Below are positions 14,421-43,434 of a stretch of DNA of 64,000 nt, piece after piece. Under the pieces are notes generated by a model, which was not told the DNA's origin, made no database searches, and saw only the letters and a program-made list of their open reading frames with translations. The DNA lies in contig BFEA01000018.1 in NCBI GenBank assembly GCA_003427395.1, forward strand, positions 1,584,098-1,648,097, in the 5' to 3' direction. The stretch is from Chara braunii. Taxonomy: Eukaryota; Plantae; Charophyceae. Numbering within the stretch: position 1 is the stretch's first letter; each line of letters starts with the position of its first letter. Made by a program: the position numbers and the translations under genes.

Positions 14421-15380
14421 ACCATTTTTTTAATTTTATTTTATTTTTCCTCTGGTGTGGAAATGTTGTTGGACTAGCGACACGACAACAGGGATTTGCG
14501 GCACGATAGCGGCAAAGTTTTTTTCTTCTTATGGCACGACGTCTATTTTGTTTAATGAGGTTATGCTACTAGAGTTGGAGTGTGCGGTGGCGACAACGTG
14601 ACATGGTGGAAGCTGGCGCGCGCGACACTATGAAATTTGCGTGAGGAGTGAATGTTGGTGGCGTAGGACCATCAGGGACCACGTGGGACCAGTTGGGACA
14701 GACGTGGTGCCAGTTGGGACTATCTTGGAAACAACCTTTTTTTTGGGGACTCGTGGGACTTGACGCCATTGAATCTGGGACTACCGCGTGTGGGACTTGC
14801 GAGTCGGGAACAAATTGGGACAAGCAGTTGGCTTGAGACTGCAATTTTCTTTGGTGACAAGTATATTCTTTCTTGGATTTCTTGAGTGAGCCAGGGCGCG
14901 TTCGACACCACTTCACTGAAGGTCAGTCAGTTGATTGACTCGGATTTCCCTTCACACCAGTGTGAACCCACACTTTGCTTTACCCTGTTTATTGAATGTT
15001 CGTTAAAAAGGCACAGGAAAGTCGTGCATATCGTGCATGTGAATGGAAAGGTCTGACTTGGGCATAGGATTGCACTGATTTTTTTTTTGAACTTGTTGTC
15101 TTTGCGTGTTGTGCAGGTAGGTAGAAGGATACTTGCAAAGGAGATTGATTATGCCTATTTGAGAAAATGGAAAAGGAATGTCTTTTTCTGACTACTCACC
15201 TGCCTCCATGCCATGAAGGGTTGGTTGTTTTGAAAAATGTCAATTTTGTGCGCATCGTAAAACGAATTCGAATCAAATTAAGCAGATAAGGTCAAACGAA
15301 CGTAGTTTTTTTCCAAATATTGACCATTTTTTTCCTAAATGACTTTTATCTGTCTAAATGTTTCTCATTCTCTATCTTTC

Positions 15381-15832
15381 GAGAGAAGGTTAACAACAGT
15401 CGTATTTTTCATCACCACTTCAGGATGCAACCTCCCTAAACAGGTGGTTTTCATGGTCTTCAAACCTTTCACCACTTCAGGACCATTCAAGTCTGAAAAT
15501 CCTGAGTGGTCCTGAAGTGGTGAAAGCTCCGAAGACCCTGAAAACCACCTGTTTAGGCAGTCTGCATCCTCAAGTGATGAAGGGTGGTTTTCACGGTCTT
15601 CAGACCTTTCACCACTTCAGGACCATTCATGATTTTCAGACTGCACAAAACTCTCACTTGACCACTTCAAGACACCCTTCACCACTTCAGGATGCAGCCT
15701 GCCTAAATAGGTGGTTTTCAGGGTCTTCGGACCTTTCACCACTTCAGGACCATTCAGGATTTTCAGACTGCCCAAAACTTTTACTTCATAATTTTCATTC
15801 CTGAATTTTCATCTACCCGATAACCGCTTGTG
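15381..15832. mobile_element. Non-autonomous DNA transposon with 8 bp TSD and asymmetric ends GAGAGAAGGTTAA...TAACCGCTTGTG
   Basis: TSD TATCTTTC at 15373-15380 and 15833-15840; internal accacttcag repeats. Confidence 0.9.
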
Positions 15833-17019
15833 TATCTTTCCTAACTATTTTCGTTCGAGTTACCTTGGGCAAGAGACGAAGGAAACAACTGAAAATCTAC
15901 TTATGGTGAACACATTCTCTTTCTTCAGGAAACATCTGGGGCGGGTGTTCGTTGCTTTAGGAGTCGGCCCTGTTATCGACCCAGAGTGGACCATTCAACG
16001 GGGGGGTACTTTGCCGATTCGGTGAAGATGACCCGACTTCTGAGATCCGAGTCTTGTGCTTGGGCGAGGAGGAGGAGGAGTACCCCATACCACTTCCTAG
16101 AGGGAGAGGCATACAACACCTCAAGCAATGCCCCTGATCAAGAATCATCCGCCAAACAGTGTCATCCAAGAAAATTGAGAAGTGTATGGAGACGGGTATG
16201 TGCGTGTTCAATCTTAAGTCAGCGATAGGATGAAATGAATAACTTTGGCAGCGCATCTCATCGAGTCAAAACTAAGGTTGTCCGACATCCATGTCAGCTG
16301 CAAATTGTTGTCTAAAGCCAACTTCTCGTTGGCGGTTGTATGATTTTTGTGGAGATCGACATGGGGTGGTCGAGTTTTATTTTGATCTTGGGTATCTAAT
16401 GATGATTTTGACTCTTTCGATTATCATTGCAGATGGGATATACATTCCTATCGACTAAGTAACAGTTTCTTTTGGTATAACCATGTGTGATTGTTATAAC
16501 TTTTTTTTGACTCGTGTTGAAAGGGGCAAGGAGGTTTCACGATTGGTTGAGACCATCCTTGTCGACCGGCGTACGGTCCGTACTTAGGAGATCAACGCCC
16601 TAAGGAACGGACGACGTCCAGGTTCAATAGGCGTTTTAATCGCGCGTACCTATACTACAGCGAGCGAGCAAACGCCCTCGGCCGACCCACCTCTGCAATT
16701 GCATGTAAAAGCTTCCGCACGTGGGTCGGTAGCTCAGCAGGGATACGCCCCTAAGGGTTGGTGACAACCCCTTAGGGAAGGCAAGCTTATGCCCCACGGG
16801 AACCTATCCTGTCGTAGGGGACCGCAGGATGTACAGCTGGCGCACCCAGCTAGAACGACGAAGGAACGACGCGACCTCGCACCCGTCTCATCGGTTAGCG
16901 AGATTATTTCGCGTCGTTCCCAAGTTGTCTCTTATGTTATGTTTAAACTCCTGCGTGACATGGTCGGGAGGGCTCCCGCCTCTTTCGCGAGAAAAAGGCG
17001 GGGGCCGATGCGCTCGACA

Positions 17020-24123: not shown

Positions 24124-24230
24124 GGCCTCGTTTCTCAATTTATGTGTGCCATCCTTGCACAGGGGCCACGCCATCCTTGCACAGGGGCTATGCTAATCTC
24201 TTCTCCACCGTTCCAATTTTTATGGATGCC
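24124..24230 (-). pseudogene. U6 snRNA pseudogene with an internal ~22 nt duplication
   Basis: The reverse complement matches U6 (ATAAAAATTGGAACG...GATTAGCAT.GCCCCTG.GCAAGGATG.CAC.CATAAATTGAGAAA); gccatccttgcacaggggc occurs twice; no USE seen. Confidence 0.9.
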
Positions 24231-24289
24231 TAAAAAAAAACAAAAAAAACTTATGGGCCTCATATCACCTACTTTTTTTTCTTTTGGGG

Positions 24290-24680: not shown

Positions 24681-26317
24681 TTTTTTATAGATATCACCTA
24701 CTTTAGGAAACCTAATAAGTCAATAATATGATAACATATATCAACATTTACCTTAAATTACTAGGACCTTATTCTTCTATGTTATATTCAAGAAGATGTA
24801 CATGATTTATGGTTTTTATTTGTTTATTCTTGACAGTGATGACTATTTACTTAGCAACTTGGGTAGTACTATCGGATTTCGGATGCGCATTGCACCAAAG
24901 ATTAGGTACAAAGTGCATATATCCTTATGGTTTGTGGAAAAACAACCATCTGTATGCAAAATTTGTCATATCGATTGTTCCCCCGGCCATTATTCAGTAA
25001 TCAAATACTTTGTTGTAATAACTTTCACTGATGTTTTGCAATTTTCAAAAGCGACTTCGTCACAAAAAATAGTTTCATGAAAATAAGCCTCTAGCGAGGC
25101 ATGTAACTGAATGGGATAATTGACTTGAAAAGTTGAAAAGTCCACAACGTTTTAAATTTTTGTTCCATTTGTCGAAAATAAGACTACTTGCATAGTTTGT
25201 TTGCAGTAGCCTAGTAGAGTAGGTACATCGCTGAACTCTGGAAATGGGGAGTTCGAACTCTAGTAGATGAGTGAAAAACTATAGTTATGAAATACTTAGG
25301 GTTGATCCATCATCATGATATTTTTTTTTTTTGTTATTTTTTTTTTAAACCACCACTACCTCCGGACGTATTTTCGTAAAGACGAAAAATAATTGCACGA
25401 AGTTTTTGCAGATCTGCAAGTCTGAGGATGATAAGAGTATCCCCCTGATTGAGGTCTTTATAGACCGATGACTCCGTTCTATTGGTGGGGAGCTCCACCT
25501 CCTGGAAATAGAGTCCAGCGCCTCTGACTTTACAATTACATCAATTCAATGTGTTGCCATTTGCTGAAGATCGGGTCCGATGCCTCTGTTATTAGGAGAG
25601 ATTCTTGCAATCTTCAACTCAATATGGTTGCCAGATATGCTATATACACCTGGTCTATCTTTCCTAAATTGTCTTCATCCTCCTAAGGCAACTCTGTAGC
25701 TGATCACTCCTATATTACAACTCTTGTTAATCAAGGTGGGTGATAGTCAAGGGATTTCTAACCCATCACCCATGAACACACTGTCGGTGCGGATACCCTT
25801 ACAAGTGTACTCGCACTGGGTCTTTGCAGTTGACAGGGAAATGGGTCGATTCATAATTAATGGGAAGACCCCGCGAGTCGCAGGGGTTCGCAGATTAAAG
25901 ATTCGGCGGTAACATCTAGGATTAGAGAGTGTGTGGGCGCGCAGGTTTGAGACGCGCGTGATTTTTCCCTCTTTGATCGCAATGGAGGACGAGGCGTGGA
26001 CTTGGTCGACGTGCTTCATCATAACAGTTGTTTGTTTTGATTAAACTGACTAACCTATGGGGGTTCTTTCCTCTAGTTCCGCATGGTACAGTGGACGGTT
26101 CGGTGAGCCTGTGTGGACTTACGAGGGATCCAGATGATGAGACCTGATGGATCTGGCAAAGGACGGGTAGCCGCGGCGAGGCCGGTAGGCCGACGCGAGT
26201 TTTGGGGTGGTCTTCTGTGCAATTGTGTGCCGGGAAGTGGCATAGGGTGTTTCCTTGGACCCAAAAACCGTGCGCTACCTCTTTATTAGGAGATTCGAGC
26301 CCACTGGTATCGGGCTT

Positions 26318-26390
26318 GGGCTTAGCCCTATAGGTTACGGCATTAGGCTGACACTACGAAGGTTCGGGGATCGAGGCCAGCGGGCGTCGG
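26318..26390 (+). pseudogene. Degenerate tRNA-like module in LTR A
   Basis: tagccctataggttacggc (D-arm-like), ctgacac loop, aaggttcggggatcgag (T-arm-like). Confidence 0.4.
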
Positions 26391-27118
26391 CGCAGCAACA
26401 TGGAGCGAAACATGAGGGGTTGAGGGCCCGGAAGGGCTAACCCCCTCGGTTTTGTTAGCAGGTGTGGCGGCGGGCCCAATCCACGGGAACCTCCCTTTCC
26501 CCGTTTTGTTTCTTTATTTATTTTTTTCTTTTTTTATATACCTCTTGTTATTTTTGTTTTAGTTTCCATCTTTTTGCTCGCGTCCTGCTTCGGGACGCGA
26601 TACCGGGATGGTTATAAGGTGGCGTGGAGAGTGTTGTTTTCGTGGGGATGCCTGAAGTGCAATTACAGACTGTGCTCGTGGCTGCGCAGGAGCTACCGTA
26701 ATCATGCCCCGTTCTACCTCGGGACGTGGTGCCGCGGACGGTGCGGGGTCTAGGGGCTTAGCCTAGTAGGGATACCCATGAACTGTTGAAACGTAGGCCC
26801 GCATCTGAGCTCAGGCGGGGGGCTGTCCCCCTTGGTTTTGGTGAAGGACACGGGGATGGGGCCCTGAAATTTTAGTTTTGCTCTATGTCTTCCCGTTGTC
26901 TTTTGTCTTTTCTTTTTGGATTTACCTCGTCGCGTCTGTACTTGGGCGCGATGTTGTGAGTAGATGCACCCGTGTTGAAATACAGGCCGTGTTCGAACCC
27001 AGATGATGAAACTTGATTTGTAAAAACAGGTATCCTAAATTGCCTGGGACCGGGGCAGGCTGACCCCGTGACCCCGGTGCTGGCCCTTGGGAAAGCCGCG
27101 GGGCGTCGCCCCTGCCAC

Positions 27119-27220
27119 GTCCTTTAGGGCATCCGTTAAAATTGGAACAGTATAAAGAAGATTAGCTTGACCCCGGCCGTAGGGCTGATGCATGTGAGTA
27201 AAGAGTAGGGGTATATTTTT
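27119..27220 (+). pseudogene. Full-length degenerate U6 snRNA copy embedded in LTR A
   Basis: gtcctttagggcatccgttaaaattggaacagtataaagaagattagcttgacccc...tattttt vs U6 GTCCCTTCGGGGACATCCGATAAAATTGGAACGATACAGAGAAGATTAGCATGGCCCC. Confidence 0.85.
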
Positions 27221-30200
27221 CTACGTACCGGTTGTGCTACCCGGCTTTCCTTTTCGGTGTCGGAGTGACCGCTAAGTAGACTGCGTTGAGGAGCTGTGTG
27301 CGGAAGACTACGTCGGGGGCGATATAGAGGGAAGGAAGGGAATGCACCTGGATGGGTTCCGGCGACAGATGCACCCACAGGCAGAGAGGAGGTAGACGTG
27401 TTGCTGCGGTGTGCGGATGGTTCGTCGGGAGGGGGTATAGGGGTGACAGGCCAGTTGAACCGTCTGACTCACCATAGCTAGGCCCTGCCGCAGTTCCCTC
27501 GGGGCAGCGCGCAACGACCGAGTGAACTAGGACGGGGGTTGCGCCAGGTGCAAGTGGAGCCAGCGGGCAGGCCGCAGCGAGCCAAGGAGCGAGCAGCGAG
27601 CGGCCGGAGTGAAGTGCCATCGAGCAAAGTAGGCAGCGCTGAGGCAGGCCGAAAGGGGGGACGGGGGCCGGTGCGCGTGAGTCTGGAGCCGGGAGTCGGG
27701 TGTTTTGTTTTTGTCTTATTTTGGTCGCATCCGTTTTGCAGAAGTCGAAGTACAGGATCGGGCGCTGACGGGCGAGTTACGGTGCGGTCGTGGGAACGCG
27801 TAGAGCGGAGGTAGTGTTGACATCAACAGGAGTGGGCGAAGGGATGGGCAGAAAGGATGTATAGGGACGAAGTTTGGGGCAGGGTGCATGCGGGGTATGG
27901 GCAGCGAACTCTGGCACAATAGGGAGATCGGGGCAGACAGGAAGCGGCGGAGTGACGCGCACGAAGGCAGGCGGTGGTGGTGCGGGCGACTGTCGGGTTA
28001 GCGCTGGAGAGGGCCGACCGGGAAGCGACGGGCGTTAGACAGGAAGGGATAAGAGGATGAATCACGCGCTAATTAGCTCCTGATACATTCGAAGGAGAGG
28101 AGACAAGGGGAAGACCGGGGTTGGACGTCGGCTGTGTAAAGTGCGACCGGGGCGGAACAGACAAGCAGCGAAAAAGAAGGGTGAATCTGGACAGGATAGG
28201 GTGCCGGGTGCACTTGGAGAGTAGGGCAATGCAGCGGACGAGGAGATGAACATGGCAGACGATGGAACCCGTAGTCCGCTCCTCCCTTATCACGCTTAAA
28301 AGAGAAGGGAGGCGATCCCGGGGTTTTTGCTCCGGGCGAGTCGATTGGCAAGGTCAGATTGAGGAGGAAATCAGTGTAATAGAAAGTAGATGAGAGAGGT
28401 GTTGCGCGGTGGAGTCGGGAAGGGAGACATAAAAAATCGCCATTTTCGCCCGTTAGTAGGCAAAAACGAGCAAAGGGGGGGGGGATACGAAACGGGGGTT
28501 TACAGCCATTGCGAGTGCGATTTAGTAGTCAGACAGGCGAGAAAACTAGTAGTGTTAGAAAGGGTAGGGAAAGGGTTAGTAGGAAAAAGGGTGCACGTTG
28601 AGCTGTGGAAGGGGAAGAAGTGGAGAGGCAAAATCCCGATCCTTGATGGAATCGGGTAAAGCAAAGGCGTAGACGGGGGTCTTAGGACAGGGCGAACCCA
28701 ATGGTGCCGAGCGAAAGTAAATGGCGAATGACGGAGGGTGAGTGAGTAAGAGAGCTGACCAGTGCCGACGAGGGAGGCGGGGAAGAAGCCGAGTGAGGAG
28801 ATTTTTCCCTTTCCTTTTCTGCTAAGCAATTGACTTTGTACTGGCATACGCCATATCTCCTCTACTGCTATAGCTATATTCGGGGTGTCGATTCCGTACT
28901 GCTACGATTGTTGCAAGGCACTGCGTACACCACCCTCTAGGCTCCAAGTTGTGACTTCGCCCATCTACCACTGCGGTGTTTGCTGCGACTAGTGACGTTC
29001 TTGTGACCAAGCTTGACTAGCTGGGGATAAGCCGCGAGGCTGAGTAACTGCCTACGGGCTTGAGTACTACCCAGCCCATTGCGCAGGCGGTCAAGGACAG
29101 CTGCGAGTGTTGCGGCAGGCTGCGACTATCGCTGAGAGGTGGGCCGCCGCTGCGAAGGTGATCCGTGGAGGGGGCCGTTGGGACGGCGGGGCTGTTGCCC
29201 TTAGCCGTGTGCGAGCCTGCTGATAGAGGTTGCTGCAGTTTGAACCCGATTGGTGTTGCTGTTGCCTGATGGTGCTTTGGATTGATGTGGGCCACAGCGC
29301 CTAGCTGCTGCATATAGCGACTTGTGCACGTTGTTCTGGGAGGATTACCGCGGTCATCATAAGGGAACAATATTGTAAGAGTGAAGGAAAGGCTGACAAT
29401 TGCTACTGCCAACTGTTGGCCGCAGCTTACTACGGCCAGCCACTGTGAGGGGAAGCTGTTGTTTGTTGGTTGGGTCCGGATGCCGCTTCTCTTAGGCTGC
29501 GGACTGTGTGTTCGGTGGGGGTGAGGAACCGGTGAAGGACGAGGTTGCTGCATACTGTGGTTGTTGCTGACGGCGCAGCGGCTGCCGGCTGTTGTAACTG
29601 GGCGCAGATTGCAGCTGCTATGGGCTGCTGTTACAGGCGACTAAGACTACTGTTGTCGACCATCGCCGGGTGCTGCTGCTGCCTGCAGCTAGTGTTGTGT
29701 GCTCCTGCATACCACCGTAGGAGGTGGCCGGTTGTTACAGGCTGCTGGGCAGCGGGGATTGGGCAGAGGAGGTTAGTGCTGTGATTTGGGAGGTCGACAA
29801 AAAGTGAACCTTGACGATTGATTGACGAGTTGACCAAGCTGTTATATTTTGGCTGCCATTGCGGGGCCCTCGGGCGATCCAAGATATCGAGGCCCTCTCC
29901 AGTGAGCTTGAGAGCACCCATCTTGTATCTGAGAGTCTCAAACCTTCTGGTTCTACCCTTCTTACTCTAAGTCTAGTCTCGATCTGAGAGGAAGGCGGTA
30001 GGCGGGATTGCAACCCGTAGGACCGCATCAAGACTCTGTGGGGAGTCAACCCACCGATTGCGGGAGCTCTGCCAGAACTCAGGAGGAGTTCAAATTCTGG
30101 AGGCAGGGAACTGACAGGTAACCCTCCATTCCCCTTTATAAACCCAGTTATAATCCCTATCTGTATCCCCCATTGCATCGTTGACTGAATATATGAAGTG

Positions 30201-30380
30201 CAGCCCTACTTTATTTTTGGTTTGGCTTTCAGGACACTGGGTCAGATTAAGTTAAGGAATGTTTGTTCAACTTCAGTTTCAACTTCGTTGATTGTGTGAA
30301 ATCATACTGTTAAAAGAAACTGCATCTGAGAAAGGCAGGATGGAGGGCTGTTTTGGTTGAGGGTGGAATGGGCCATCAAG

Positions 30381-31320
30381 ACTGGGAAGTCCCCTTAAGT
30401 TTGGGGAGACCCAGTGCTTTGTTTTTTTTTTTGTTTTGATTGAAGCACTAGACCCTTCTATAAGTTTAGGGGGTCTGATTGCTTTGGACATTGGGATGTC
30501 CCCATAAGTTTGGGGAGATCTAGTGCTGTGTTTTGCATGAAGGGTCAGGCTTTTCTATAAGTTTAGGTGGCCTGACTGCTCTGACTTGTGAAGGGTTTGA
30601 TTGTGCTCGATTTTCAGGGACTCGGGGCATTCAATAAGTTTTGGTGCCTTGGGTTGCCTTGTTTTCACTGGGTTTTATTTGTTTCTTTGGTTTCTGAACG
30701 AGGAGGTCTGAGTTGTTCTATAAGTTTAGGTGGCTCAGCCTCTTCCTTCTTTTTATTCTGAAGAAGTAATCTTGGCAAAGGGCAGACCCTTCTGTAAGTT
30801 CAGGGGGTCTGACTCGATGCTACACACATGATGATTCAGAGAGAAATGAAAATTGGCAGAGAGTTAGATCCGTCTGTAAGTTCAGGGGGTCTGGCTCAAA
30901 GCCTCGTACATGCTGGAACCTAATGGTTATAACTTAGCTATACTTTACTACTATTCTATCTAAGAACGAGCTAATCAGACTATTCTATAAGTTTAGGTAG
31001 TCTGACTATAGCCTATCGCAACTTGAAGAGAGTATAACTAAGAATAAAACCGGTGGTAAACTGGGGCAGACTGAACTTAAGTTAGTTCAGTCATATGCAG
31101 CCTTAGAAGACAAAGGTGAAAACAAATATATACAACTTGGATATCTTAAACGGTTCAGGGCGACTAGAGTGGTTTAGTCATGCGCCCAAATAAGAGAAAA
31201 GTTGTTGTGCCATATGTTTGTGTATACTTTGGCTAAGATGGATTCATTCCATAAGTTTGGGTGGCCCGACTTTAGGCCTGGCTAAGGTAAGGTTCATTCC
31301 ATAAGTTTGGGTGTCCTTAC
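30381..31320 (+). repeat. Array of ~12 stem-loops with a TAAGTT loop (LTR A)
   Basis: For example gactgaact-taagtt-agttcagtc, cagacccttctg-taagtt-cagggggtctg and tcccca-taagtt-tgggga. Confidence 0.9.
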
Positions 31321-31619
31321 CTTATGCCTTATGTAAGCTGGGTACAAGGGATTAAATCATTAAAAGGTCATGAACTATTGTTTGTTCAGGTATACTTTGG
31401 GATGGTGAGAGTACTTACCTTTGTGGTCTGGCTTGCATGTGACTGAGTGAGGCCACTACTTAGTATGAGTTTCAGGTTGATAGGTAGTTGCTTTAGCTGC
31501 TCGTCACGTGCTAGAGCCATAAGAGTTAGTGTCAATTCCTGCATTTTCTGTAGTAACTTTTTTTTACTTAGGTCAATTCTCGCATTTTCTGGGATCTTTT
31601 CTTAAACTTGGCTTTGTAT

Positions 31620-32165
31620 AAATCTTGGCAAGCTACTTTCTCTACGGGAAGCGCTGCCAAAATTTCTACAAATCCAAGAAGTTCGTCAAATTTTTGACTT
31701 GTCAAAAGTTCAATTTTGTCTTTTCTTTTATCTGACTTAGTAAAAATCTGGGAAGTCTCCTTTTCTAAAGGGAGTGTTGCCCAATTTTTTGTTAATTCAG
31801 GAGGTTAGACAAAATTGGACTTTGAGAAGTCAAAGTTGCTTTCAAATTCTCGACTTAGTCTTGTATAAATTTTGAAATAACACTTTTCTAGAGGGAGTGC
31901 TGCCGAAATTTCTGCAAAACTAAGGAGTTAGTTAAATCTTGTATAAAGTTGAACTCAAGTTGTCTTTTGAAGTTCATATCTGACTTAGTATAAATCTGGG
32001 AAGCCTCCCTTTCTAAACGGAGTGCTGCCCAAATTTTTACTAATTCAGGGAGTTAGACAAAATTGGACTTTCCAGAATTAAAGTTTATTTCTGCTTTCAT
32101 ATTTGGACTTATATAAATTCTGGAAAAACACTTTTCATATGGGAAGCGCTGCCGAAATTTTATTA
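31620..32165 (+). repeat. ~124 bp degenerate tandem repeat, 5 copies, core GGGARGYGCTGCCSAAATTT (LTR A)
   Basis: Cores near 31646, 31770, 31893, 32019 and 32141. Confidence 0.85.
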
Positions 32166-34902
32166 GTTTAAAGGAGATCGATTATATTTTGACAGGTGGC
32201 GATTTTGATAGTCCACTCTGAATGGAGGAAAATTTTGCCATATTGCTTAGGGGTAGGTTTAGACATAGTTAACTAGGATGATTTGGGTAAGATCACGATA
32301 TGAAGATTGTTCTCCATGAACTTATAGATTTAGCCTGGGGCATTGACCTGTCATGTGTTACAGACCCTCTTGATCGTTTGATTCAATATCCGGACTAGAT
32401 TCAGCTTGATCCCTTGAGGATCATCATCTGTTATCATTGATAACAGGTCGGTTGCCGATTCGTCGGTCTACGATTCAATTCCAACTCACCCTCCACACTC
32501 AACCTAAAAGGCTTTAGCCCTGGTGATTTCATTGTTACATTGAGGTTTCACCCGGACTTTTATTGAATGGCCATTTAACAAAGGTACTGAGTATTTAATT
32601 AAGGTTGGTTGGACAGGAGGTTGGGGCTTGCATGGCTAAAGCGAGGGGTATGAGTGCAGAGAATGGTTGGGGTTGACTCCGTGTAGTGCGTGGACTGTTG
32701 TTTGACTCTTCGATGTGATTGCAGGTATGTGCTGTGGCTTAGATCCTGGATTTGACTGCCTGCGATCGCATATATACATATGGTTGTGAGGAACCCCACT
32801 GAGACCGTGAGAAGTGATCGTCACAAACTTACCCCTTTGTATATGTATACATGGGTGTACTTGGGATGAATGTCTGCATGGGCTAAAGGGGCCCGTACTA
32901 AAAGCCTACTCAGAGGTTAAGACTGAGAGGCATAGGGAACGCCCTTCCTTTTATTTGTTTTGCTTTTTGGGGGTTTTCTTAGTCGGACGTTGGTCCTGGG
33001 TCCTTGTCCAGGACATCCCAAGCCCGAGGCTCTGCAGGGGAGGGATTCCCCCCTCGCACAGAGCCTATTTCCATTGCCCGTCGAGGCACCCCACCTTGAA
33101 GGCGGACATGTCGCATGGGCTGAACGGCATGTCCTTCAGCCGTTCAATATCGTGTGGGGTCCCCTCACGATATATTCATTCAGCCATTCAATATCGCGAG
33201 GCCGGACCCACGTTTACCACGTATGGTTGACATCGTTGGTTGGTATGAGACTGACCCACAACTGCGCGACTTTATATTAGAATCCCGCGCGAGGTGTTTC
33301 GCCGCCCTGGTGTTTAAAAGTTATGGGATCAAAAGGGGTCAGCACACACGCGCGAACGCTTGGGATTACTATAGGCCGCTGGCATCACCCGAAAGGGGAG
33401 GGTACCCCAAGGCTTTGTTTTCTTTTGGGATAAAGGGAACCTTCGGTCTATTTATGCTTTTTAGATGTTTATGGTTGGACGTTGTAGTCCGTGGCAGCCG
33501 TCAAAGTCAACCCCCCTGACTTTTGTTCAGGTTTGGAAAGGGGCTCATCTCCACGGCAGTAAGAAACGACTGCCACCACAAGTATGGACCTGTGTACCAC
33601 CCGCTCTGCACAGAGTGCAGAAGAGGGTGTGTGATATTCAACCGCACATGGCGGTTGTCCAGCGTCGAGAGATTAACCCTCAAGGCGCGTGTCAACCGAC
33701 ACTTGAGTGTCGAATGCGACCCTCGAGATTAACGAGGACCGCATGAATATGGGTACTACATGGTACGCCATCATTGCGACTGCTTGCGTACGTTCGCATT
33801 GCTAGCCGATATGAGTAGGCCCTGCGTCCGTGCGGTTTTATACTAAGTCTATCGCGCGACGCTTATCCGATTTTCGCATTGGAAAGTTATAGGATGGCTA
33901 TCGAGGGGCTAGGAGCGTTGTCACATTGTTTGTGTTGTGTCATTTCGTATGTGTGTGTATGTGTGTTTTATCTTTGTGTTTTGTTGGAATGGTGTGCGCG
34001 TGGTGTGTGGGATGTGTCCTAGTCGACCGACGACGGGCCGCGCTTAGGACTTCAGCCCCCCAAGATGTCGGTTCGTGTGCGGGCCCGATAGAGGCGTATT
34101 ACCACGCGTACCCTCTATGCTACAACGAACGAGAAACGCCCTCGGCTGGTCCACCTCTGCGATTGCAACTGATTAACTTTTGTACTGTAGACTGGTAGCT
34201 CGACGGGGATAAGCCCACCGAAGGGAGGTGGCAACTCCCGTAAGGTGGAGGTAGGTCGTGCCTCGCGTAGGCCCTATCCTCTCGTAGGGGCTCGCGAGAG
34301 GTATGGCTGGCGCACTCAGCCGGAGTGGGTTGCGGAAGCTCCACATGTATATTTACGACGAAGGATTTAAACCAACTCCTGCGTTGTCAGTGCAAATACA
34401 CTTACAAGGGTATCCACCCTGTTTTTTGCATGTGACAGAAAATAGGCTTAATTTAAAGTTTGAGTGTACCGCACGAGTTGCAGCAGTGTCTGCTGTTTAT
34501 ATTGACTGGGTGGTTGACTAGAGTAGAGAGTGTAGGGGCGCGCAAACTTGAGGCGCTCGTGGTATTATTATTATTATTTTTATTTATTTATTATTATTTT
34601 TTTTTAATGACCGAAGAGTCGGCGTGATCGCCGGTTAAACTTTTATTTATTTACTTCTGATTTAAATTAGGTTTAATTGATATGATAATTTTTGGTATGT
34701 CTGACCGAGACACGCGCGCGGGCGTGGAGATCGGCCTCGACAAACAGTGAGATTTCTGCATGATAAAGGGGTGCTCGACATCGAAGGCTGGTGGGGCGAG
34801 GACCCGGTTTTTAATTAGTTTCCGTGTTTAGGCTTTATTTCTAATTTTTTTTACTTTATTGTTACCTTCTGCCTTTGTTGGTAATCGGTTTTGAGACCGA
34901 CA

Positions 34903-34965
34903 GGTCAGGTTTAGTTGGTATGCCATTGAGCTGTTGGAAAACAGACCCGAGTTCGGGCTCCCTCG
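34903..34965 (+). pseudogene. Degenerate tRNA(Pro-like) module in LTR B
   Basis: ggtttagttggtatg...gacccgagttcgggctc. Confidence 0.4.
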
Positions 34966-34995
34966 TGTTCGGTACGCTGNCGGAATTTCTTTGTC

Positions 34996-35508
34996 CCGCC
35001 TGTCTTGAAACAGACATGGACCGAGGAGTTCAANGGGCTTGCGAACTGGTGGGTAGACCGAAGGGGCCTGTAAGATAATGGATCGTGCCCGGGCATAGTG
35101 GCTTGAAAGCTGTCCGAGGCGCTGTTGAGGGACCGCGGCGGTGNCGNGGCAAGCTGCGGGTCNCGGGGAACCCCTCCTCCACTTTGGTTTTCAAAGTTCT
35201 CAATTGAGTATTTGTTACTACCGCGGGGATCTGCATTAAGGGTTGTTTTGTCCTAAACCCTGCCTATGAGCCCGTAGTAGGCCCGCGGCCCCGCCTCCGG
35301 GATGTTTTGTGTATGGGTCATCGGTTGTGGGCCTGAAAAGTGGCCAGCGTTTGCTTGAGCCGAGTGAACAAGGAGGTGGGCCCCCTGTAGAGGTGCGCAC
35401 TAATAGTTGTCGGACGGCTCGCTCGACGGGCTTGGGCATAGGGGCGAAAGACTAATCGGACTGTCCGGTGGCCGATTCCATCTGAAGTTTTCCTTAGGAT
35501 AGCTGCAG
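34996..35508 (+). pseudogene. LSU (25S/28S) rRNA-derived segment embedded in LTR B
   Basis: cctgtcttgaaaca..tggaccgaggagt (cf. CCCGTCTTGAAACACGGACCAAGGAGT) and ttgggcataggggcgaaagactaatcg...gaagttttccttaggatagctg (cf. TTGGGTATAGGGGCGAAAGACTAATCG...GAAGTTTCCCTCAGGATAGCTG), in the correct order. Confidence 0.88.
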
Positions 35509-38500
35509 TTGTTGAACAACTTATGTGTCGTTACAGGGTCCGCTACTGTAGACAGCAGTGTTAGCTGTAGACGCGGTAAGAACAAGAGAGGGTTAAACGA
35601 ACCCCATTGTAGTAGCCTCACATGAAGTTGCACCTCGGTCATAAAGCCGGCCGGACTCATCTGGCAGTGCGGGGCGCTATCGATCGTTGCCTACGTGAAA
35701 GGAGGGGGTTGAGTTAGTAGTACGAGGAAGTAGAGAGCCGCCGCAGCAGAGTAGCAAGAGAGGGGCCGAACCTGGCCGCCGGGCTGTACTGGGTACGATC
35801 GAAGTAGATGTGGCCAGGGACTGTCGGGCAGCAAAGATGGCCCGTCGAGGCTACGGGAACGCTGCGCTAGCTGCGAAGGGCAAAACCGGGCAGCGCTGCG
35901 CGACAGCGGGCAGAAGTGGGATAGCAAGGCTGCGGGTGTCTAGCGCTGAGCCGGTGAAGAGTGGAGGAGCGGAGTTTGCAGCAAACGGAGGGAGGAGTAA
36001 AAGTGGGAATGAATTCGGGTGTGTTTCCGCGCCAGATTCATTCGAAGGAAGGAGCTATGGAGCGAACGGGCAGGGCGCAGTCTGGGAAACGTAGCTCTCT
36101 CGATCCTCAGCGGAATCGAGAGGGGTAAGATGCTACCCCGGGGTTTTGACCCCGGGCGAATCCGTTCGTGAAGTCACTTTCAGAGGGGAGTGTGTAGCAT
36201 CAGCGTTAGAAGGAAAAGTCGTGGGTGGAGGGATGGCGAGGAGGCAAGCACGGTGTGGCAAGAACAGGTGTATCTTGCCCGATTACTGATGAAAACGGGT
36301 GAACTTAGACTCTATTCCGAAGTTCTTGAACCTCGCGAATCTGTCTGTGGAGTCGGTTTTCGCGTTGGAGTCTCGGTCTCGACACTACGCGAGTTATGGG
36401 CTGCGCCTGAAGAAGGAGATGGAGGGAGTGTGAAAGTGAGGGATTGATAAAGTCTGGTGAAAAGAGAAATGGGGAAAAGATGCTAATCCTGGGGTTTGGG
36501 GGCTGGCGAACTAGATTGGGAGGTTAGTTTTAGGAAGAGAGTTAGCGCAGAGGAGCGGAGTATTAAAAGAGAAGGTGAGGTCGACGGGAAAGTGAACAGG
36601 GATAGGCGTCTGCGCCAGGTGCATCCGCAGTCGAAGGGGAGAAGACGACGAATCTCACCCGTTTCTCAACGAAAACAGGTGGGAGAAAGTGCTACTCTGA
36701 CATTTTTTTGTAGGGCGAACGCGTTGGTGTTGCTAAATTTGAAGGATAGTCAGTAGGATAAGAGTTAGAGGAAAGATAGACTGCGAGGAGTAAGGAGGAA
36801 AGAAGGCAGATGAATCTGGACTGGAAAGTGCGTGGAGTCATGGAGATGGTCGGAGTGGTGAAGGAAGGAAAACTCGATATCTGCCCCGATACCCAACAGA
36901 ATCGGGCAGATCAAGATTCGTTCTGGAGGTTTCAAGTGCTTGCGATTCTGAATCTACAGCTAGATTAGAAGGAGAGTTAGTGAAATAGAAGCGAAAGTAA
37001 GGTGCATGGAAGGTGTCAGGGGGAGAAACGGGCAATCGTGCTCAATCGCTGCTAAGACTCGAACGAGGAAAGGAGTTAAAGCCGTGACTTTGAATCAGGC
37101 GAGCGCAGTAACCATTAAAGCTGCGGAGAAACGATGTCACAACGATGAATTTATCTCTCCGCGCTCTAGCAAAAGATTCATTCCCATCCGGCCCGACTCA
37201 GCAAGACAGTCAGGGTCCGTTGGGCGACAAAACCCAGGTCGTGACTGACCTCGAGCTCTAGTAGTGCTTCCGGCCGCTGCGTCGGTGCTGACCTCCTCCT
37301 CAACAGTAAGATGTTTGGTTAAAGACCAGTAGAGGACGGGGGCTGCGTCAACAAAGGCAAAAGGATTACGTGGAGCAGATCGGGCCGGTCGAAGGAGTAT
37401 AGCGGGCAGTTAATGTATTATTCCGCTTTATAACAGAGGGTTCATTCTTGTTTGCTTTTCCCTCAGGTACTGTGTGTGCATAAGAGCGAGGCAGGCGTGC
37501 GGGGGCTGGGACACAGGAGGAATAAGCGAATAAGAGGGAGAGAAGTTACTTACCTGGGCAGAGAGGGAAATGGGACCAGGAGGCTGCCACCCACAGAGCC
37601 AAACACGTCAAAGACAGGGACTGCTCGGTTCGGGATGACCATGTTGACTGTCGGTGACGGCGGACGTTAGGCGAAGTGACTCTTGGCTCAATGGGTAGTG
37701 GAAACCAGTAGTCTGCGGAGCTAAGTAGGTCATGTGCTACTTCGCACAGTGTTGGATGTGTGGGCGTCCGCGCCCCACCATTGCCCTGCTGCCTGAGGTT
37801 CGCTTGCCTTGCATGTAGTTCTTTGCGGGTTGATGTGTTCGCTGTGCGGTATGGCCGTGTTGAAAGTGTTGTCCTATGTTTTGCTATTTTATTGTCGGGC
37901 TGTTCCTCCGCCGGCCGTGCCCTCCCGGTACATACTGTAGGTTACCGTGCTGCTGATGCAGCTAGTTGCTATCGTGTCGGGGCACAGTCTGTGTGCTTAT
38001 ATTGAACCTCGACTGGTGTGGCTGTTGTAGGCTTAGGCAGCTGCTGTGTTTTAAGGCTGCTGTATGCTACTGCCTGCCACAGCCCGCCGTTGCCAACTAT
38101 TATGACAACTGTAGACTGTGCAAAAGTTGTTGCTGGCCATTGTTGGCTATGGCAGGCCATGAAAGTTTGATACATACTACAGCGTACTACAGCCGGCCAC
38201 TGCGTATTACTCCACATTACTGCGACATTGTTGTATACTACGGGCCTACTGCAGGCGTCTGTGCGTCATCGTTGAGAGGGTGGTGAACCGCTGTTGGTTG
38301 AGCACTATTATTGACGTTATGCATCACTACTGCACNTGACCGAGGCTANTGATGTGCACCGTTNACTGAGGCACGACAATACGTAGGTTGGAATACTGTA
38401 ATTTGTTGAGATACAGTTCGGCCAGCGCGCTATTGGGTCTATTGTGGGGGCGCCGCAAACAGGAGGTGTAGTTGGACTGTGAGGGGAGTTAAATGCTGNG

Positions 38501-39099
38501 AAGTGGGGGNTCGTCAGGAGGGTGAGTTCGACNGTTTGACTTCAGGTTGACCAAGCGATTGTTACATTGGTCGCCATTGCGGGGCCCTTAGGCGTTGGAA
38601 GATAACAAGGCCCTCTCCCGCGAGTCTGAGTGCAACTCCCTTGGATTTGAGAGTCTTAACGTTTCTACTTCTGCCTTTCTTACTCTAAGTCTAGTCTGTT
38701 GGTTCTGAGAGGAAGGCGGCAGGCGGGATTGCAACCCGTAGGACCGCAACAAGACTCTGTGGGGAGTCATCCCACCGATTGCGGGAGCTCTGCCGGAACT
38801 CAGGAGGAGTTATGGAGGCAGGGAACTGACAGGTAACCATTGCTTTCCCTCTATAAACACAGTTATAATCCCTATCTGTATTTCCCATTACATCTCTGAC
38901 TGAGTATATGGTGTGCAACCTTACTTTGACTTTTGTTTGACTTTCAGGACGCTGAATCAGACTAAGTAAAGGAATGTCTGCTCAATCTCAGGTTCAACTT
39001 TATTTTGTTGTATGAAATCGGATTGCTGAAAGGAATTGCATCTGGGGAAGGCAGGATGGAGGACTGTTTTGATTGAGGGTTTGACTGGGTCATTAAGGC

Positions 39100-40080
39100 T
39101 AGGAAGTCCCCACAAGTTTGGGGAGACTCAGTGCTTTGTTTATTTTGGTTCGTATGGAGCGTCAGACCCTTCTATAAGTTTAGGGGGTCTGATTGCTCAT
39201 GAAGGGTCAGGCTGTTCTATAAGCTTAGGTGGTCTGACTGCTCGGACTTGTGAGGGCTGCTTGTGTTTGACTTTTTCAGAGACCAAGCTCGTTCTGTAAG
39301 TTCAGGTGCCTTGGTCACCTTGGTTATTTTGGGTTTTTCCCTGTTTATTTGGTTCTGAACGAGGAGGTCTAAGTCGTTCTATAAGTTTAGGTGGCTTAGC
39401 CTCTTCCTGTTTTTTTTTTGATAAAACGAACCTGACAGAGGGCAGATCGTTCTATAAGTTCAAGTGATCTAGCCCAATGTCACGCACATATTGGATCAGA
39501 GAGGAACGAATTAGGCAGAGAGCCAGACTGTTCGCTAAGTTCAGGTGGTCCGACTGAAAGCCTCGCACATGTTGGAACCCAAAGGTTATAACTTGGCTAT
39601 ATTTTGTTATTAGTCAATTTAAGAACAGGCTAGTCAGACCGTTTTATAAGTTTAGGTGGTCTGACTATAGCCTATCACAACTTGAAGAAAGTATAATTAA
39701 AAATATAACTGGTGGTAAGTTGGGGCAGACTGAACTTAAGTCAGTTCAACCCTATGTAGACTTAGAAGGCTAAGTGCAGACAATTATATATACCTTGGAT
39801 ATCTTAAACAGTTCAGGGCGACTAGATGGGTCTAGTCATATGCCCAAAGAAGAGAGAAGTAGTTGTGCCCTCTGTTAATGTATACTCTTTGACAAGTTAG
39901 GCTCATAAATGTAGGAATACTACTGGGAAGTTGGTGGGCTTATCATGAGCTAGGTTGGGGCGGTTGGTGGTCTTGGGATCCCGTAGAAAATGCATCTTTG
40001 ATGCCTTGGGTATAAACTACAACTTGTATTCATTCAGTCATTTCATTTCGGTTGAATCCATAAGTTTGGGTGGTCCGACC
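39100..40080 (+). repeat. TAAGTT hexaloop stem-loop array (LTR B)
   Basis: ~10 hairpins, e.g. tagtcagaccgtttta-taagtt-taggtggtctgacta. Confidence 0.88.
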
Positions 40081-40379
40081 TTATGCCTTATGTAAGTTGG
40101 GTACAAGGGATTAAATCATTGAAAGGTCATGAACTATTGTTTGTTCAGGTATACTTTGGGATGGTGAGAGTACTTACCTTTGTGATCTGGCCTGCACGCG
40201 GCTGAGTGAGATCACTACTTATATGAGTTTCAGTTTGATAGGTAGTTGTTTTAGCTGCCCGCCGTGTGCTAGAGCCATAGGAGTTAGTTTCAATCCCTGC
40301 ATTTTCTGTGATAGTTTTTTTTACTTAGGTCAATTCTTGAATTTTTTGGGATCATTTTTTTGTACTTGGCCTTGTATAA

Positions 40380-40920
40380 ATCTTGACAAGCTACTTTCTC
40401 TATGGCAAACGCTGCCAAAATTTCTACAAATCCAAGGAGTTAGTCAATTTTTGACTTGTTAAAGTTCAACTTGTCTTTTCCTTATATCTGACCTAGTAAA
40501 AATCTGGAAAGTCTCCTTTTCTAAAGGGAGTGCTGCCCAAATTTTTGCTAATTCAGGGAGTTAGACAAAATTTGGATTTTGAGAAGTCAAAGTTACTTTC
40601 AAATTCCAGACATAGCCTCGTATGAATTTTGGAAAAACACTTTTCTAAAAGGTGTGCTGCCGAAATTTCTGCAAAACTAGGGAGTTGGTCAAATCTTGTC
40701 TAAGTTGAACTCAAGTTTTCTTTTGAGTTCATATCTGACTTAGTGTAAATCTGGGAAGTCTCTCTCTCTAAAGGGAGTGCGGCCCAAATTTTTACTAATT
40801 AAGGGAGTTAGACAAAATTTGACTTTCCAGAGTTAAAGATTATTTCTGCTTTCATATTCAGACTTATATAAATTCTGAAAAGACACTTTTTCTACGGGAA
40901 GCGCTGCCGAAATTTTCTTA
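40380..40920 (+). repeat. ~124 bp repeat, 5 copies (LTR B)
   Basis: Cores near 40405, 40526, 40651, 40772 and 40896. Confidence 0.85.
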
Positions 40921-40928
40921 GTTTAGAG

Positions 40929-41366
40929 CTGTGTAGTATCGTGCTCGGGTTCGGTGACCGAACCCGAACGTTCGGGACCGAACGCGAACGAGCGCCAAAA
41001 CTTTCCGAACACGAACGTAAAAATATTTAAAAAAAAAAAAAAAAAAAANNNNNNNNNNNNNNNNNNNNNNNNNNNNNNNNNNNNNNNNNNNNNNNNNNNN
41101 NNNNNNNNNNNNNNNNNNNNNNNNNNNNNNNNNNNNNNNNNNNNNNNNNNNNNNNNNNNNNNNNNNNNNNNNNNNNNNNNNNNNNNNNNNNNNNNNNNNN
41201 NNNNNNNNNNNNNNNNNNNNNNNNNNNNNNNNNNNNNNNNNNNNNNNNNNNNNNNNNNNNNNNNNNNNNNNNNNNNNNNNGAACACGTTCGGGTGGCGTT
41301 CGGCCGAACACCCGAACATGTTCGGACGTTCGGAAAAGCTCCGAACATGTTCGGTGTGCTACACAG
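40929..41366. mobile_element. hAT-like MITE (contains an N gap)
   Basis: TIR CTGTGTAG...CTACACAG; 8 bp TSD GTTTAGAG at 40921-40928 and 41367-41374; CCGAAC/GTTCGG subterminal repeats. Confidence 0.88.
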
Positions 41367-41397
41367 GTTTAGAGGAGATAAATTGTATTTTGACAAG

Positions 41398-41664
41398 AGA
41401 CGATTCTGACGATCGTAGGAAGATCGTAGCCCGAACCTCTAAGAATCGGCCAAGGTCAGGCGGCCCGCCTCTCTTTACCCCCTCCTTCCAGATAAGCCGA
41501 CGGGCTCTAACCCACACGTATGCCCCTTCCCGGAAAACCTCTCCCTTCTCCACGCTCATCCAATAAGGAGTCACCCTGGGGTCTCCCGGAACTAAAACCC
41601 TCTCGGCGTCACTGACCTCTATCGATTCCACCACCCCGTTTTCACTGAGCATGAACTTCACCAT
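41398..41664 (-). pseudogene. Accessory ORF family alpha, truncated copy
   Basis: GAYVWV...GRFLEVRATIFL aligns with GEFVWV...GRSLEVTAVIFI of 41642-42328. Confidence 0.6.
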
Positions 41665-42328
41665 CTGCTATCATCCTTCTAAAGACCCACCTGCGATATT
41701 TTTCGGGAGAGAGAGTGAAGGGTTCTTCTAGAGACCTTAGTCTCCGAAAAATACCCCAGAGTTTTCTGCGCGGCGGAATACCCTGATTGATGCAATGCGT
41801 ATACAATATCCACAGGGCCCTGAAGGTAAGCCCCAAACTCCTGCCCCTCTCTAGAAGACACACTATCTTTCCCTCGATTGCTCTAGGGAACAGGTAAGAC
41901 GACACCCTCACAGTTAACGGGTAACTTGACCTCGGAAGCTCTCTTTCCCTTGCGAACCTCTCCCTTTTCATGGACACGAATGCAAATCGCTCTCTAACCC
42001 TACTTATCCACTCCCCTCTCACGTCTCTCGCCTCTCGCAACAATTTTTCCAGCCCACCCCCTTGTCCCAGAATTAGGGGTACTACAAGCTTCGTCAAAGC
42101 CTCCGGTGCAATGAAAATAACCGCGGTTACCTCAAGACTCCGCCCAAGACCTTGGCCTTCTACTTCTTTGGATTCTACCCACACGAATTCCCCACTAACC
42201 GTGGACCTCCCCCCTTCTATCCTTTCCCAATCAGGGACTTCCCCGTTGCTAGGGAATAGCCTAAGGGCCTCATGGTCCTCTAAAGAGGACTCTAAGAAGC
42301 ATCCCTGCTCTCTATCATGGAACACCAT
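41642..42328 (-). CDS. Accessory ORF family alpha, 228 aa, unknown function
   Basis: Intact ATG ORF; motifs IFIAPEA, ELPR, VSSYLF and LWILYTHC are shared with paralogs. Confidence 0.65.
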   Translation of the reverse strand: MVFHDREQGCFLESSLEDHEALRLFPSNGEVPDWERIEGGRSTVSGEFVWVESKEVEGQGLGRSLEVTAVIFIAPEALTKLVVPLILGQGGGLEKLLREARDVRGEWISRVRERFAFVSMKRERFARERELPRSSYPLTVRVSSYLFPRAIEGKIVCLLERGRSLGLTFRALWILYTHCINQGIPPRRKLWGIFRRLRSLEEPFTLSPEKYRRWVFRRMIADGEVHAQ

Positions 42329-42332
42329 TCAT

Positions 42333-43075
42333 TTAGAACATTCTCTGCAGTACCCCGAAGACCCTTTGGTATCCGTAGTCCCTTCCCCCCTTGCGGTCCC
42401 GGGTAGACTCCCTAAAGATCCCCGCACGAATCCTCCATGCCTTGATCCCGTATGGTGCCGGGTTATCCACGCAATAGGTGTAGTACCAATGGAGCGACCT
42501 AACAGGGAGCTGCCACCCCCTTTCTCGCACTATGGACCGCACAACCCTCTCGTATCGCTCCTCCTTCCCGGTCACCCTTCGAAAAACGAACGACGGGAAT
42601 ATGGCTCTGATGCACCCTGTGGCGCGGGGGTACTCTTCGTCTCGCGCGCAGATCACCCTTACCTCAACGGGTGGGTAGTGTCTAAGGGGTTCCGCCTCAA
42701 AGATCTGCCTCAAAATCGGACCCGCTTGTGCCTCCCAATGATCCGCACGGTACCAACCCAGGACCAAGTGAGTGACGTAATCGACCCAGGCCTCCTTACT
42801 TAAGTAGACAGTTCCTTCCGCATGGATCACTGGTCGCCTGGGTCTCTTCCCGCTTAGGGGCCTGTTCTGGGACCACCTGTCCCCCTCCCAAGTTCCTACC
42901 GCGAAACGAGCCCAAAGAAAAACCCCTCGTTCTAATTTTAACCCTCTCTCGCGACCGGCTAGATACCTCTCCGTGCGATGGTCTAAGGGGACGATGAAGC
43001 ACTCCCTGTCTTTGCTTAAATCCGCCTTCTCTATCCGAACCCCTTCTTCCTCAGTACCCTCTATGATCCTAACTA
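42333..43075 (-). pseudogene. Accessory ORF family alpha (stop or frameshift in the N-terminal part)
   Basis: GVFLWA...VYLSKEAW...EEYPR...FPSFVFRRV...LHWYYTYC. Confidence 0.6.
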
Positions 43076-43434
43076 TCCCCTTGGACTATCTCTTCTATGA
43101 TTTGAACCAGCACTTTCCAATCGTCCGACCCGTCCAGGAAAGCGTCCGGAATAGTGGGAACAGGCCTACCCCCTCGTGAATACGTCCTACACCCCAACGA
43201 GTAGAAGTAGTTAATCTCGTAAGCCCCCAGCAGTTGCCTCTCGAGCTGTGCGTGACCGACCGCTTCCTCCCAGCTATCCAAATATCCTGCCTCTCTATCA
43301 ACACCCTCTTCTACGTACAAGGCTATGTCGAAGTGGCTGGTCCACCAGTAGAAGGTATAGCACCACACATTTACCCCGCCTCGATCACCTACACTAATTC
43401 TTGCGGGTTCAAACTCCAAAGGCCTCAAGCTCAT
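43069..43434 (-). CDS. Accessory ORF family beta, copy 2
   Basis: MSL...VNVWCYTF...YVEEG...YFYSLG.RTY.RGGRP.P.I.DA.LDG. Confidence 0.6.
   Translation of the reverse strand: MSLRPLEFEPARISVGDRGGVNVWCYTFYWWTSHFDIALYVEEGVDREAGYLDSWEEAVGHAQLERQLLGAYEINYFYSLGCRTYSRGGRPVPTIPDAFLDGSDDWKVLVQIIEEIVQGDS

Follow-up and report, generated by a model that had tools for sequence, protein, structure and literature searches.

A twelve-hairpin array with a shared UAAGUU loop in a Chara braunii LTR retrotransposon: a possible tag on unspliced genomic RNA

Introduction

Why would a long terminal repeat (LTR) carry the same six-letter loop, TAAGTT, on a dozen different hairpin stems within one kilobase? This question is raised by a stretch of 64,000 nt from contig BFEA01000018.1 of Chara braunii (hereafter, the window), for which the initial annotation, made from the letters alone, had proposed a multivalent RNA platform for protein binding, serving packaging, export, localisation or anti-silencing, with Gag or the accessory ORFs as candidate ligands. 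Our literature search, which covered papers outside subscription (and therefore neither the Chara genome paper nor its supplements), returned no description of such an array. According to a 2025 review, RNA export of green-lineage LTR retrotransposons has not been studied directly (PMC12786077), and packaging signals are described as not clearly defined even for Ty1 and Ty3 (PMC4974528). With its clearly delimited 31-nt motif, repeated twelve times and containing letters that do not vary, the array is a candidate on which the question of genomic-RNA selection becomes testable; an MS2-like multivalent tag of natural origin, together with its ligand, could, moreover, serve as a tool.

The Element Carrying the Array

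The window consists of eukaryotic repeat DNA, in which one long repeat recurs as regions A, B, and D, 78–89% identical (Table 1). The host element was identified from the ORFs of element D, a decayed Ty3/gypsy gag-pol on the minus strand, where Pfam recognises a CCHC knuckle followed in order by protease, reverse transcriptase, RNase H, and integrase. Its Pol is 93% identical to C. braunii CBR_g19212, and this species accounts for nearly all of the best 120 matches. The tail of the integrase frame (50555–50660, minus strand) is very rich in arginine, lysine, and glutamate and is unmatched in the homologues checked.

Copy A starts with TGTCGG and matches the 5′ end of B (25782–25965 against 34385–34566, 68%); after these first ~180 nt, the next ~4 kb of the two copies have diverged. 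At its other end, A matches D up to a stretch resembling a primer binding site (PBS) (33698–34382 against 61494–60822, 84%), and beyond ~60816 D runs in turn through this stretch, the accessory ORFs, and gag-pol. Since the 3′ end of A continues in D into the PBS-like stretch and gag-pol, the repeat is an LTR of ~8.6 kb, whose sense strand is the one that reads TAAGTT; the loops of array D indeed lie on the same strand as gag-pol, which confirms the label. As for the termini, A and B start with TG, a distant relative (C) ends with CA followed by TGG (TGACA), and D ends with CG followed by CTG. A search for a target-site duplication of A found none, and no 3′ LTR of D lies within the 64-kb window. 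All three copies are fragments, B being split at ~40928–41368 by an inverted-repeat insertion that contains an N gap and truncated after ~41410. B begins directly at the 3′ end of A (34384/34385), which lacks its last four letters; this abutment may be either a head-to-tail LTR–LTR junction or an insertion into the LTR tip.

In relative C, a donor-like CAG/GTAAGT lies near 13047, and strong hairpins are many but differ in their loops; a TAAGTT array is absent from it, so that the clade can do without one. The degenerate repeats behind array A, which share a motif with C, are likely distinct from the hairpins and an element at the level of DNA.

A fourth copy, L001, 80.6% identical to A, came from a pattern scan of metagenome contigs, in which one of 14 loci proved to be a true copy. 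The other 13 were rejected; these are tandem repeats unrelated to the element, which share no similarity with any part of the window and score no more than 15.7 bits with the model described below (R1). Unrelated short tandem repeats carry TAAGTT by chance at L006 5000–5420 and L010 4066–4167, and L010 and L013 hold AT-rich perfect hairpins on a TAAGTT loop. Viral contigs scanned with a two-hairpin pattern gave 0 matches. Copies were, thus, compared among A, B, D, and L001.

Table 1. Features of the element and of its hairpin arrays, as positions in the window.
Feature	Position	Strand	Remarks
Distant LTR relative C, ~5 kb	~11990–16960		shares 5′ terminal hairpin, 3′ end block, GAAG..CTGCCGAA motif (14239, 14293)
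LTR copy A, ~8.6 kb	25782–34384	+	solo or truncated, no gag-pol attached; ends matched to B (5′) and D (3′)
Conserved ~270-nt block of A	29850–30117	+	ends ACAG/GTAACC (30117/30118); conserved in A, B, L001, including the GT
TATAAA, 20 nt behind the candidate donor	30137–30142	+	kept in A, B, L001
Hairpin array A	30381–31320	+	12 hairpins, of which 9 are type I (bulged), 2 are type II (CCCC/GGGG), and 1 is type III (perfect stem)
Degenerate ~125/250-nt repeats behind array A	31595–32193	+	recurring GAAG..CTGCCGAA-type motif
LTR copy B	34385–41410	+	adjoins 3′ end of A; starts TGTCAG at 34385
Leader block of B	38568–38832	+	ends ACAG/GTAACC (38832/38833)
Hairpin array B	39095–40080	+	10 hairpins, loops 39113–40061; h3 deleted, h11 replaced by other sequence
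gag-pol of element D	50555–56782	−	decayed, several frames; Ty3/gypsy order (Pfam)
Accessory ORFs between LTR and gag	58473–60628	−	alpha 60628–59849; middle ORF 59696–59199; beta 59198–58473
3′ part of the 5′ LTR of D	60816–64000	−	ends ...TGACG, then PBS-like stretch ~60815–60798
Hairpin array D	63165–63995	−	10 hairpins, loops 63976–63184; runs off window end

Inventory and Architecture of the Hairpins

The window contains 59 occurrences of TAAGTT, whereas shuffles give 30.1 ± 5.0 and none of 100 shuffles reaches this count. Among the 447 hairpins with a six-nt loop and at most −12 kcal/mol on either strand of the window, 20 have TAAGTT and 11 its complement AACTTA, and these are the commonest six-nt loops in the window, a (TA)n microsatellite aside. 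The loops of array A start at 30396, 30461, 30505, 30558, 30635, 30721, 30795, 30877, 30988, 31078, 31252, and 31302, spaced 44–174 nt apart. Array A has 12 hairpins and arrays B and D have 10 each, so that the approximate counts of the initial annotation were exact, and all five closing stems that it listed (cta/tag, ctg/cag, cca/tgg, caa/ttg, act/agt) are present; nine further hairpins were scored in L001. The near-invariance that it claimed for the loop also stands, 36 of 41 loops over the four copies being exactly TAAGTT, a count that includes the 12 loops of A, picked for that very motif. Hairpin h9 of L001, in a shifted register, was left out of the pair counts; its h10 (a different stem, the loop with one change) is outside the 41 and entered only the retest of loop conservation; h11, present in two copies, is not polarisable.

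Three hairpin types recur across the copies. Type I (32 hairpins, 31 of them in one register) has an upper stem of 3–4 bp, one 5′ bulged pyrimidine, and a lower stem of 7–9 bp; type II (h1 and h3) is CCCC/GGGG, and the stem of type III (h10) is perfectly paired. Among the type I hairpins, U(−4) and G(+4) do not vary (31/31), and 29 of 31 have a pyrimidine at position −5; U(−4) can be taken as the fixed bulge or as a fixed partner in a wobble pair, both registers scoring alike. Some hairpins have decayed (B h7, B h8, D h12, and A h11). The first reading had noted neither these three types nor the constancy of U and G on the bulge side nor the splice-donor setting described below.

When the whole leader of A is folded, 10 of the 12 loops stay open; h2 prefers a longer alternative pairing and h11 is weak. 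The partner of h2 is the h4–h5 spacer (30585–30610), complementary to its 5′ arm and loop, which wins in the fold; this predicted pairing is possibly an alternative conformation, and just the first letters of the spacer are kept in the other copies.

We built a model from the array, R1, whose 25 strong matches in the window are all training hairpins of the three arrays, the next best reaching 13.9 bits (E 0.24); no strong match was found beyond the arrays, LTR C and gag-pol included. Rfam gave 0 matches at E ≤ 1 over 29800–31500 (no IRE, TAR, or other family).

Selection on Pairing and Loop

Pairing was assessed on a gap-free alignment of 31 type I rows, comprising 372 stem cells; the rows are related, so that the shuffle counts that follow are not probabilities. 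Paired cells make up 90.3%, against 76.5 ± 1.1 in shuffles and 24–49% in slid registers, and cells with a double change number 59 against 21.3, none of 500 shuffles reaching either value. Two further covariation measures did not exceed the shuffles (74/500 and 42/500). RNAalifold finds the same stem unaided, with double changes in 9 of 10 pairs. The outer stems do, as had been claimed, differ and still pair, and covariation is present beyond both shuffles and slid registers.

The comparison of orthologous hairpins points the same way: 13 double changes were counted in 309 cells where 2.7 were expected (P 6e-6), and 12 of the 13 keep the pair, the chance of doing so being 0.48–0.56 for each. 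Leaving out B h5 and D h12, possible gene conversions, there remain 8 against 1.5 expected. In the loops outside A, 6 changes were found in 174 bases, against 17.8 expected from the spacers, and a retest gave 7 in 180 (P 0.002); these counts use hand-set orthologues and replaced column counts that included misaligned columns of B. The letters of the upper and lower stems are no better conserved than the spacers. The stems, in other words, keep pairing and not sequence.

One has to consider here that the array may be a neutral relic, i.e., one hairpin unit duplicated in tandem, whose matched changes come from template switching or conversion and whose G-T pairs come from decay. Local duplication is indeed visible (h1–h2/h3–h4, as well as read joints going back 103 nt), B h5 alone holds 4 of the 10 polarised double changes to Watson–Crick pairs and may be a conversion, the lack of conservation of the stem letters would be expected, and the background of C>T over G>A changes given below also agrees with decay. 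Template switching, however, makes palindromes perfect, so that neither the bulge nor the U·G should have outlasted it, yet both persist in 31 of 31 hairpins; the loop changes at a third of the rate of the spacers; and the excess of double changes survives the removal of the two suspected conversions. The spacers are, moreover, mutually unrelated, and Tandem Repeats Finder, which would recognise a head-to-tail satellite, reports no array at 30381–31320 or 39095–40080. We, thus, consider a neutral origin unlikely and already disfavoured. From these comparisons, the array is a real feature under selection as RNA, and the invariant U(−4) and G(+4), set on stems that turn over, read as a sequence-plus-shape recognition code.

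RNA or DNA

In the type I stems, mismatches on the sense strand are G-U in 51 cases and A-C in 11, in agreement with the many sense-strand G-U pairs claimed at the outset, and 38 of 41 hairpins are more stable in sense than in antisense. Folding array A gives −360.4 kcal/mol (z −9.2) on the sense strand, against −261 (z −8.8) on the antisense one; both strands fold far beyond shuffles, so the z-score alone picks no strand, and it is the balance of G-U to A-C that does. Decay of methylated C in a DNA palindrome should yield G-U and A-C about equally. Polarised changes number 15 to G-U and 5 to A-C, with p 0.04, which becomes p 0.08 against the measured background (C>T 0.25, G>A 0.18); this test is, therefore, suggestive, and the invariant U and G weigh more. 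Methyl-C decay, which the initial annotation had feared might explain the G-T pairs wholly, does not account for a U·G kept in 31 of 31 hairpins nor for a ratio of 51:11, weak as the polarised test is.

The same data bear on a role in DNA, in which inverted half-sites (GTCAGAC...GTCTGAC-like) or cruciforms would be bound on chromatin by a transcription factor or an element protein. The array does lie in an LTR near other repeated motifs, and its antisense strand also folds far better than shuffles; the arms, however, change in sequence yet keep their complementarity, the conserved part is the unpaired centre, and the mismatches are of a kind tolerable on one strand only. We hold such a role to be very improbable.

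A Candidate Splice Donor Upstream of the Array

About 265 nt upstream of the array, a conserved block of ~270 nt ends at a likely GT donor; this block is likely the first (leader) exon. The TATAAA behind the donor could be either a TATA box or a poly(A) signal. AUG scarcity in the block (0, 1, and 1 against 3.5–4 expected) was set aside, as CAT is scarce too; downstream, the leader continues for 4.3 kb with 65 AUGs.

Reads came from three 2026 oligo-dT runs (X1–X3, of which X1 and X3 are stranded) and a contig set (X4), chosen by species label and mapped at 80% identity; their direction follows the mapping convention and agrees with the orientation of the GT. Few reads reach 99% identity or more (0/298, 17/7851, and 1/523), so the signal belongs to members of the family and not to these copies. 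Both stranded runs have their highest sense depth over the ~270-nt block and a fall of at least 20-fold at the conserved GT: across the GT of B, successive 31-nt bins have depths of 185, 80, 8, and 3.7 in X3 and of 90, 46, 13.5, and 5.6 in X1, and the pattern on A is the same. Over the array, sense depth is 1–2% of the block peak (3.4 in X3 and 0.8 in X1 on array B), and in these runs antisense depth on B is 0 for all 11 of 11 bins and on A does not exceed 0.62. Run X2 has both strands at similar depth over the array (11–52 vs. 16–36). A contig of 1763 nt in X4 runs from the leader block through the array, and one X4 contig extends 775 nt upstream of the block. The region is, thus, transcribed, family copies being read as sense RNA, which the initial annotation had left in doubt.

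Loose read ends at the GT comprise one well-supported sequence unlike the LTR, together with mixtures, none of those listed being poly(A). A search for the splice acceptor or joint gave 0 matches for the best loose end and no convincing candidate, and no transcription start or end site was called from the reads. As no acceptor was found, splicing rests on the depth step, which could be deepened by mapping loss at 80% identity over the more diverged array (spacers 77–81% identical vs. 81–86% for the leader block) or by relatives sharing just the 5′ block. A splice donor followed by an array-bearing intron is, then, likely, not proven.

Two conserved motifs lie behind the array. An acceptor-like TTGTTTGTTCAG/GT is found directly behind it in A, B, and D (31372–31391 in A); an intron between 30118 and 31389 would bracket array A exactly, but the stranded runs have no rise in sense depth there. 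Just behind the array is also TACTTACCT (31411–31420; B 40170, D 63068), which, read on the antisense strand, matches the 5′ splice-site consensus perfectly and on the sense strand is complementary to GUAAGU-type loops; X2 has high antisense depth in this region (31381–31722).

The donor context suggests another possibility, namely, that the array controls RNA processing, the loops acting as decoy 5′ splice sites that recruit U1 snRNP against splicing or 5′-LTR polyadenylation or the AAGU-capped stems being bound by an RNase III-type dsRNA-binding protein. UAAGU corresponds to positions +2 to +6 of the GUAAGU consensus, and 9 of the 31 type I hairpins have a G before the loop, giving GUAAGU; 20 of 31, however, have A at +1, which leaves just five letters able to pair with the 5′ end of U1. 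The succession of a donor and, 20 nt later, TATAAA inside an LTR resembles the R region of foamy virus, where U1 at the donor blocks 5′-LTR polyadenylation (PMC3694450), and AAGU tetraloops are known as substrate selectors of yeast RNase III (PMC10141212). Here, AAGU is closed by U·U and not by C-G, and the longest unbroken stacks measure 4–11 bp in all 12 hairpins of A, whereas RNase III measures 14–16 nt (PMC5714217); the stems are, therefore, too short for RNase III or Dicer. As this scheme also leaves the invariant bulge-side U and G unexplained, we find it improbable.

Accessory ORFs and RNA Export

Alpha and beta are paralogues (28%) confined to such elements. No homologue of alpha was found at E ≤ 0.001 among proteins of length 142–454; beta had 7 matches among 1.84 billion, of which 6 are close copies and the seventh, a weak match to a repeat protein, was judged spurious and left out. 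Neither protein has a Pfam family, a protein-atlas match, or a PDB sequence match (PDB 0), and no signature of an RNA binder appeared in the family, atlas, PDB, or model look-ups. Beta is charge-balanced (43 R+K, 39 D+E), and its AlphaFold model is unusable (pLDDT 41). A further element at 41642–43085 (minus strand) has a run of sense ORFs, with one distant paralogue of alpha/beta (E 3e-4).

These ORFs call to mind a licence of the Rev/RRE or CTE kind, in which a protein of the alpha/beta family made from spliced RNA, or a host export factor, would oligomerise on the hairpins and let the intron-retaining genomic RNA escape nuclear retention and decay. The position behind the donor is the same and fits this scheme as well as it fits Gag, the retained leader with its AUGs would be a real export and decay problem, and the element does encode lineage-restricted accessory paralogues. 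A loop with a single pyrimidine bulge recalls TAR and IRE; the known export elements, on the other hand, consist of one large fold and not of twelve separate same-loop hairpins, and what was found for beta (balanced charge, no match, unusable model) does not favour a binder. A gypsy-type precedent with such a protein exists in Cer1 CERV (PMC10309623), and, among LTR retrotransposons, the IAP RTE and the musD MTE serve RNA export (PMC12786077). An export licence is, in our opinion, possible, though doubtful.

Both ideas could be combined into a switch in the style of complex retroviruses, in which alpha and beta, made from spliced RNA, would bind the twelve TAR/IRE-like bulged hairpins of the LTR intron and drive both export and packaging of the unspliced genome. 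The loop and its bulged U would then form a new protein–RNA pair, and same-loop arrays might be a general, overlooked cis element of LTR retrotransposons. We mention this wider scheme as a speculation and would rather bet against it.

A Tag on Unspliced Genomic RNA

The position of the array behind a likely used donor narrows its candidate jobs to those of unspliced genomic RNA, i.e., packaging, export, and stability. Spliced RNAs would lose both the array and the primer site, which the genomic RNA alone would keep, so that the array could tell genome from message. Our preferred reading, to which we give a probability of roughly 40%, is that the array is a multivalent tag on this RNA, read most likely by the element's own Gag for packaging.

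Transcription would start in or upstream of the leader block, and most transcripts would splice out at the GT, which would rid them of the array and of all that follows it in the LTR, rich in AUGs, as well as of the primer site. The 1–2% of RNAs that keep the intron would display up to twelve identical loop-plus-bulge surfaces, on which several Gag molecules could bind cooperatively through their nucleocapsid knuckles; this binding would nucleate a particle on full-length RNA only.

We ranked Gag first because same-loop stem-loops with a 5′ bulge are the packaging-signal code of capsid proteins and because the packaging signals of Ty1 are at the 5′ end, within the first ~580 nt of the RNA (PMC4974528). 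Element D encodes a Gag with a CCHC knuckle, which speaks for this ligand; the location of the array within the LTR, with the primer site ~3 kb further downstream, differs from that of a classical Psi and speaks against packaging. The platform proposed by the initial annotation is, thus, upheld in part, as RNA-level, sense-strand, multivalent, and selected; anti-silencing and localisation gain no support, and alpha and beta, its other candidate ligands, gave no match to an RNA-binder family or fold in the look-ups above.

Other Features of the Window

The sole Rfam matches in the window are two U6 snRNA fragments above the gathering score, at 27119–27220 (plus strand) and 24140–24241 (minus strand); the first is a captured snRNA piece inside the diverged upstream part of LTR A. 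In the upstream LTR part of B, ~35000–35520 resembles what we take to be decayed large-subunit rRNA (no Rfam call at gathering score). Internally repeated, inverted-repeat (MITE-like) insertions are found at 56800–57700, 15400–15830, and 40928–41368, one of which splits a duplicated pre-gag segment of D. At 6428–7696 (minus strand) lies an intron-less 422-aa WD40 ORF with a C-terminal hydrophobic tail, presumably SEC12-like, although the exact protein was not found in the protein collection searched; a fragment at 49290–49754 (minus strand) resembles, we assume, NAD(P)HX dehydratase. Both are possibly captured or retro-copied host genes.

Comparison with Known Systems

Retroviral Psi is a compact set of unlike hairpins, beside or behind the primer site. 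The array resembles it in that its hairpins stand in a 5′ leader, likely behind the major donor and, thus, in unspliced RNA, in an element encoding a CCHC Gag; it differs in having twelve hairpins with one and the same loop, spread through ~950 nt of the LTR, and it lies neither adjacent to nor downstream of the primer binding site, as it ends ~3 kb upstream of the LTR end. The signals of Ty1 and Ty3 compare with the array in the same respects (PMC4974528). Closer in design are MS2 TR and the packaging signals of STNV, where many stem-loops share a loop motif and a 5′ bulge on differing stems, the MS2 hairpin being read by a loop-plus-5′-bulge recognition code (PMC6281560). The array does have a common loop motif on variable stems, but it is clustered in one kb of non-coding leader instead of dispersed, R1 having no strong match in gag-pol.

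Among export systems, Rev/RRE, CTE, IAP RTE, musD MTE, and Cer1 CERV likewise serve the intron-retaining genomic RNA of LTR elements, and here the accessory ORFs could supply the trans factor; these systems are single complex folds, none of them known from a plant-lineage element (PMC12786077; PMC10309623), and alpha and beta have no detected similarity to any known protein. The R region of foamy virus shares the context, with a donor inside the LTR and a hexamer resembling a poly(A) signal downstream; no same-loop array is described there (PMC3694450), and the LTR here is ~8.6 kb. AAGU-tetraloop hairpins, known as Rnt1p substrates and as a conserved motif in the UTRs of Jingmen viruses, also repeat an AAGU core in untranslated RNA (PMC10141212); in the array, this core is flanked by U and U in a hexaloop and not by C-G, a fixed bulge lies 3–4 bp below, there are twelve copies, and none of the 12 loops of A sits on a regular duplex of 14–16 bp or longer, as an RNase III or Dicer substrate would have it. 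Judged from its sequence, the array may, thus, work like a Psi or a set of packaging signals, yet it belongs to neither class, set apart from the first by its position and from the second by its lack of dispersal.
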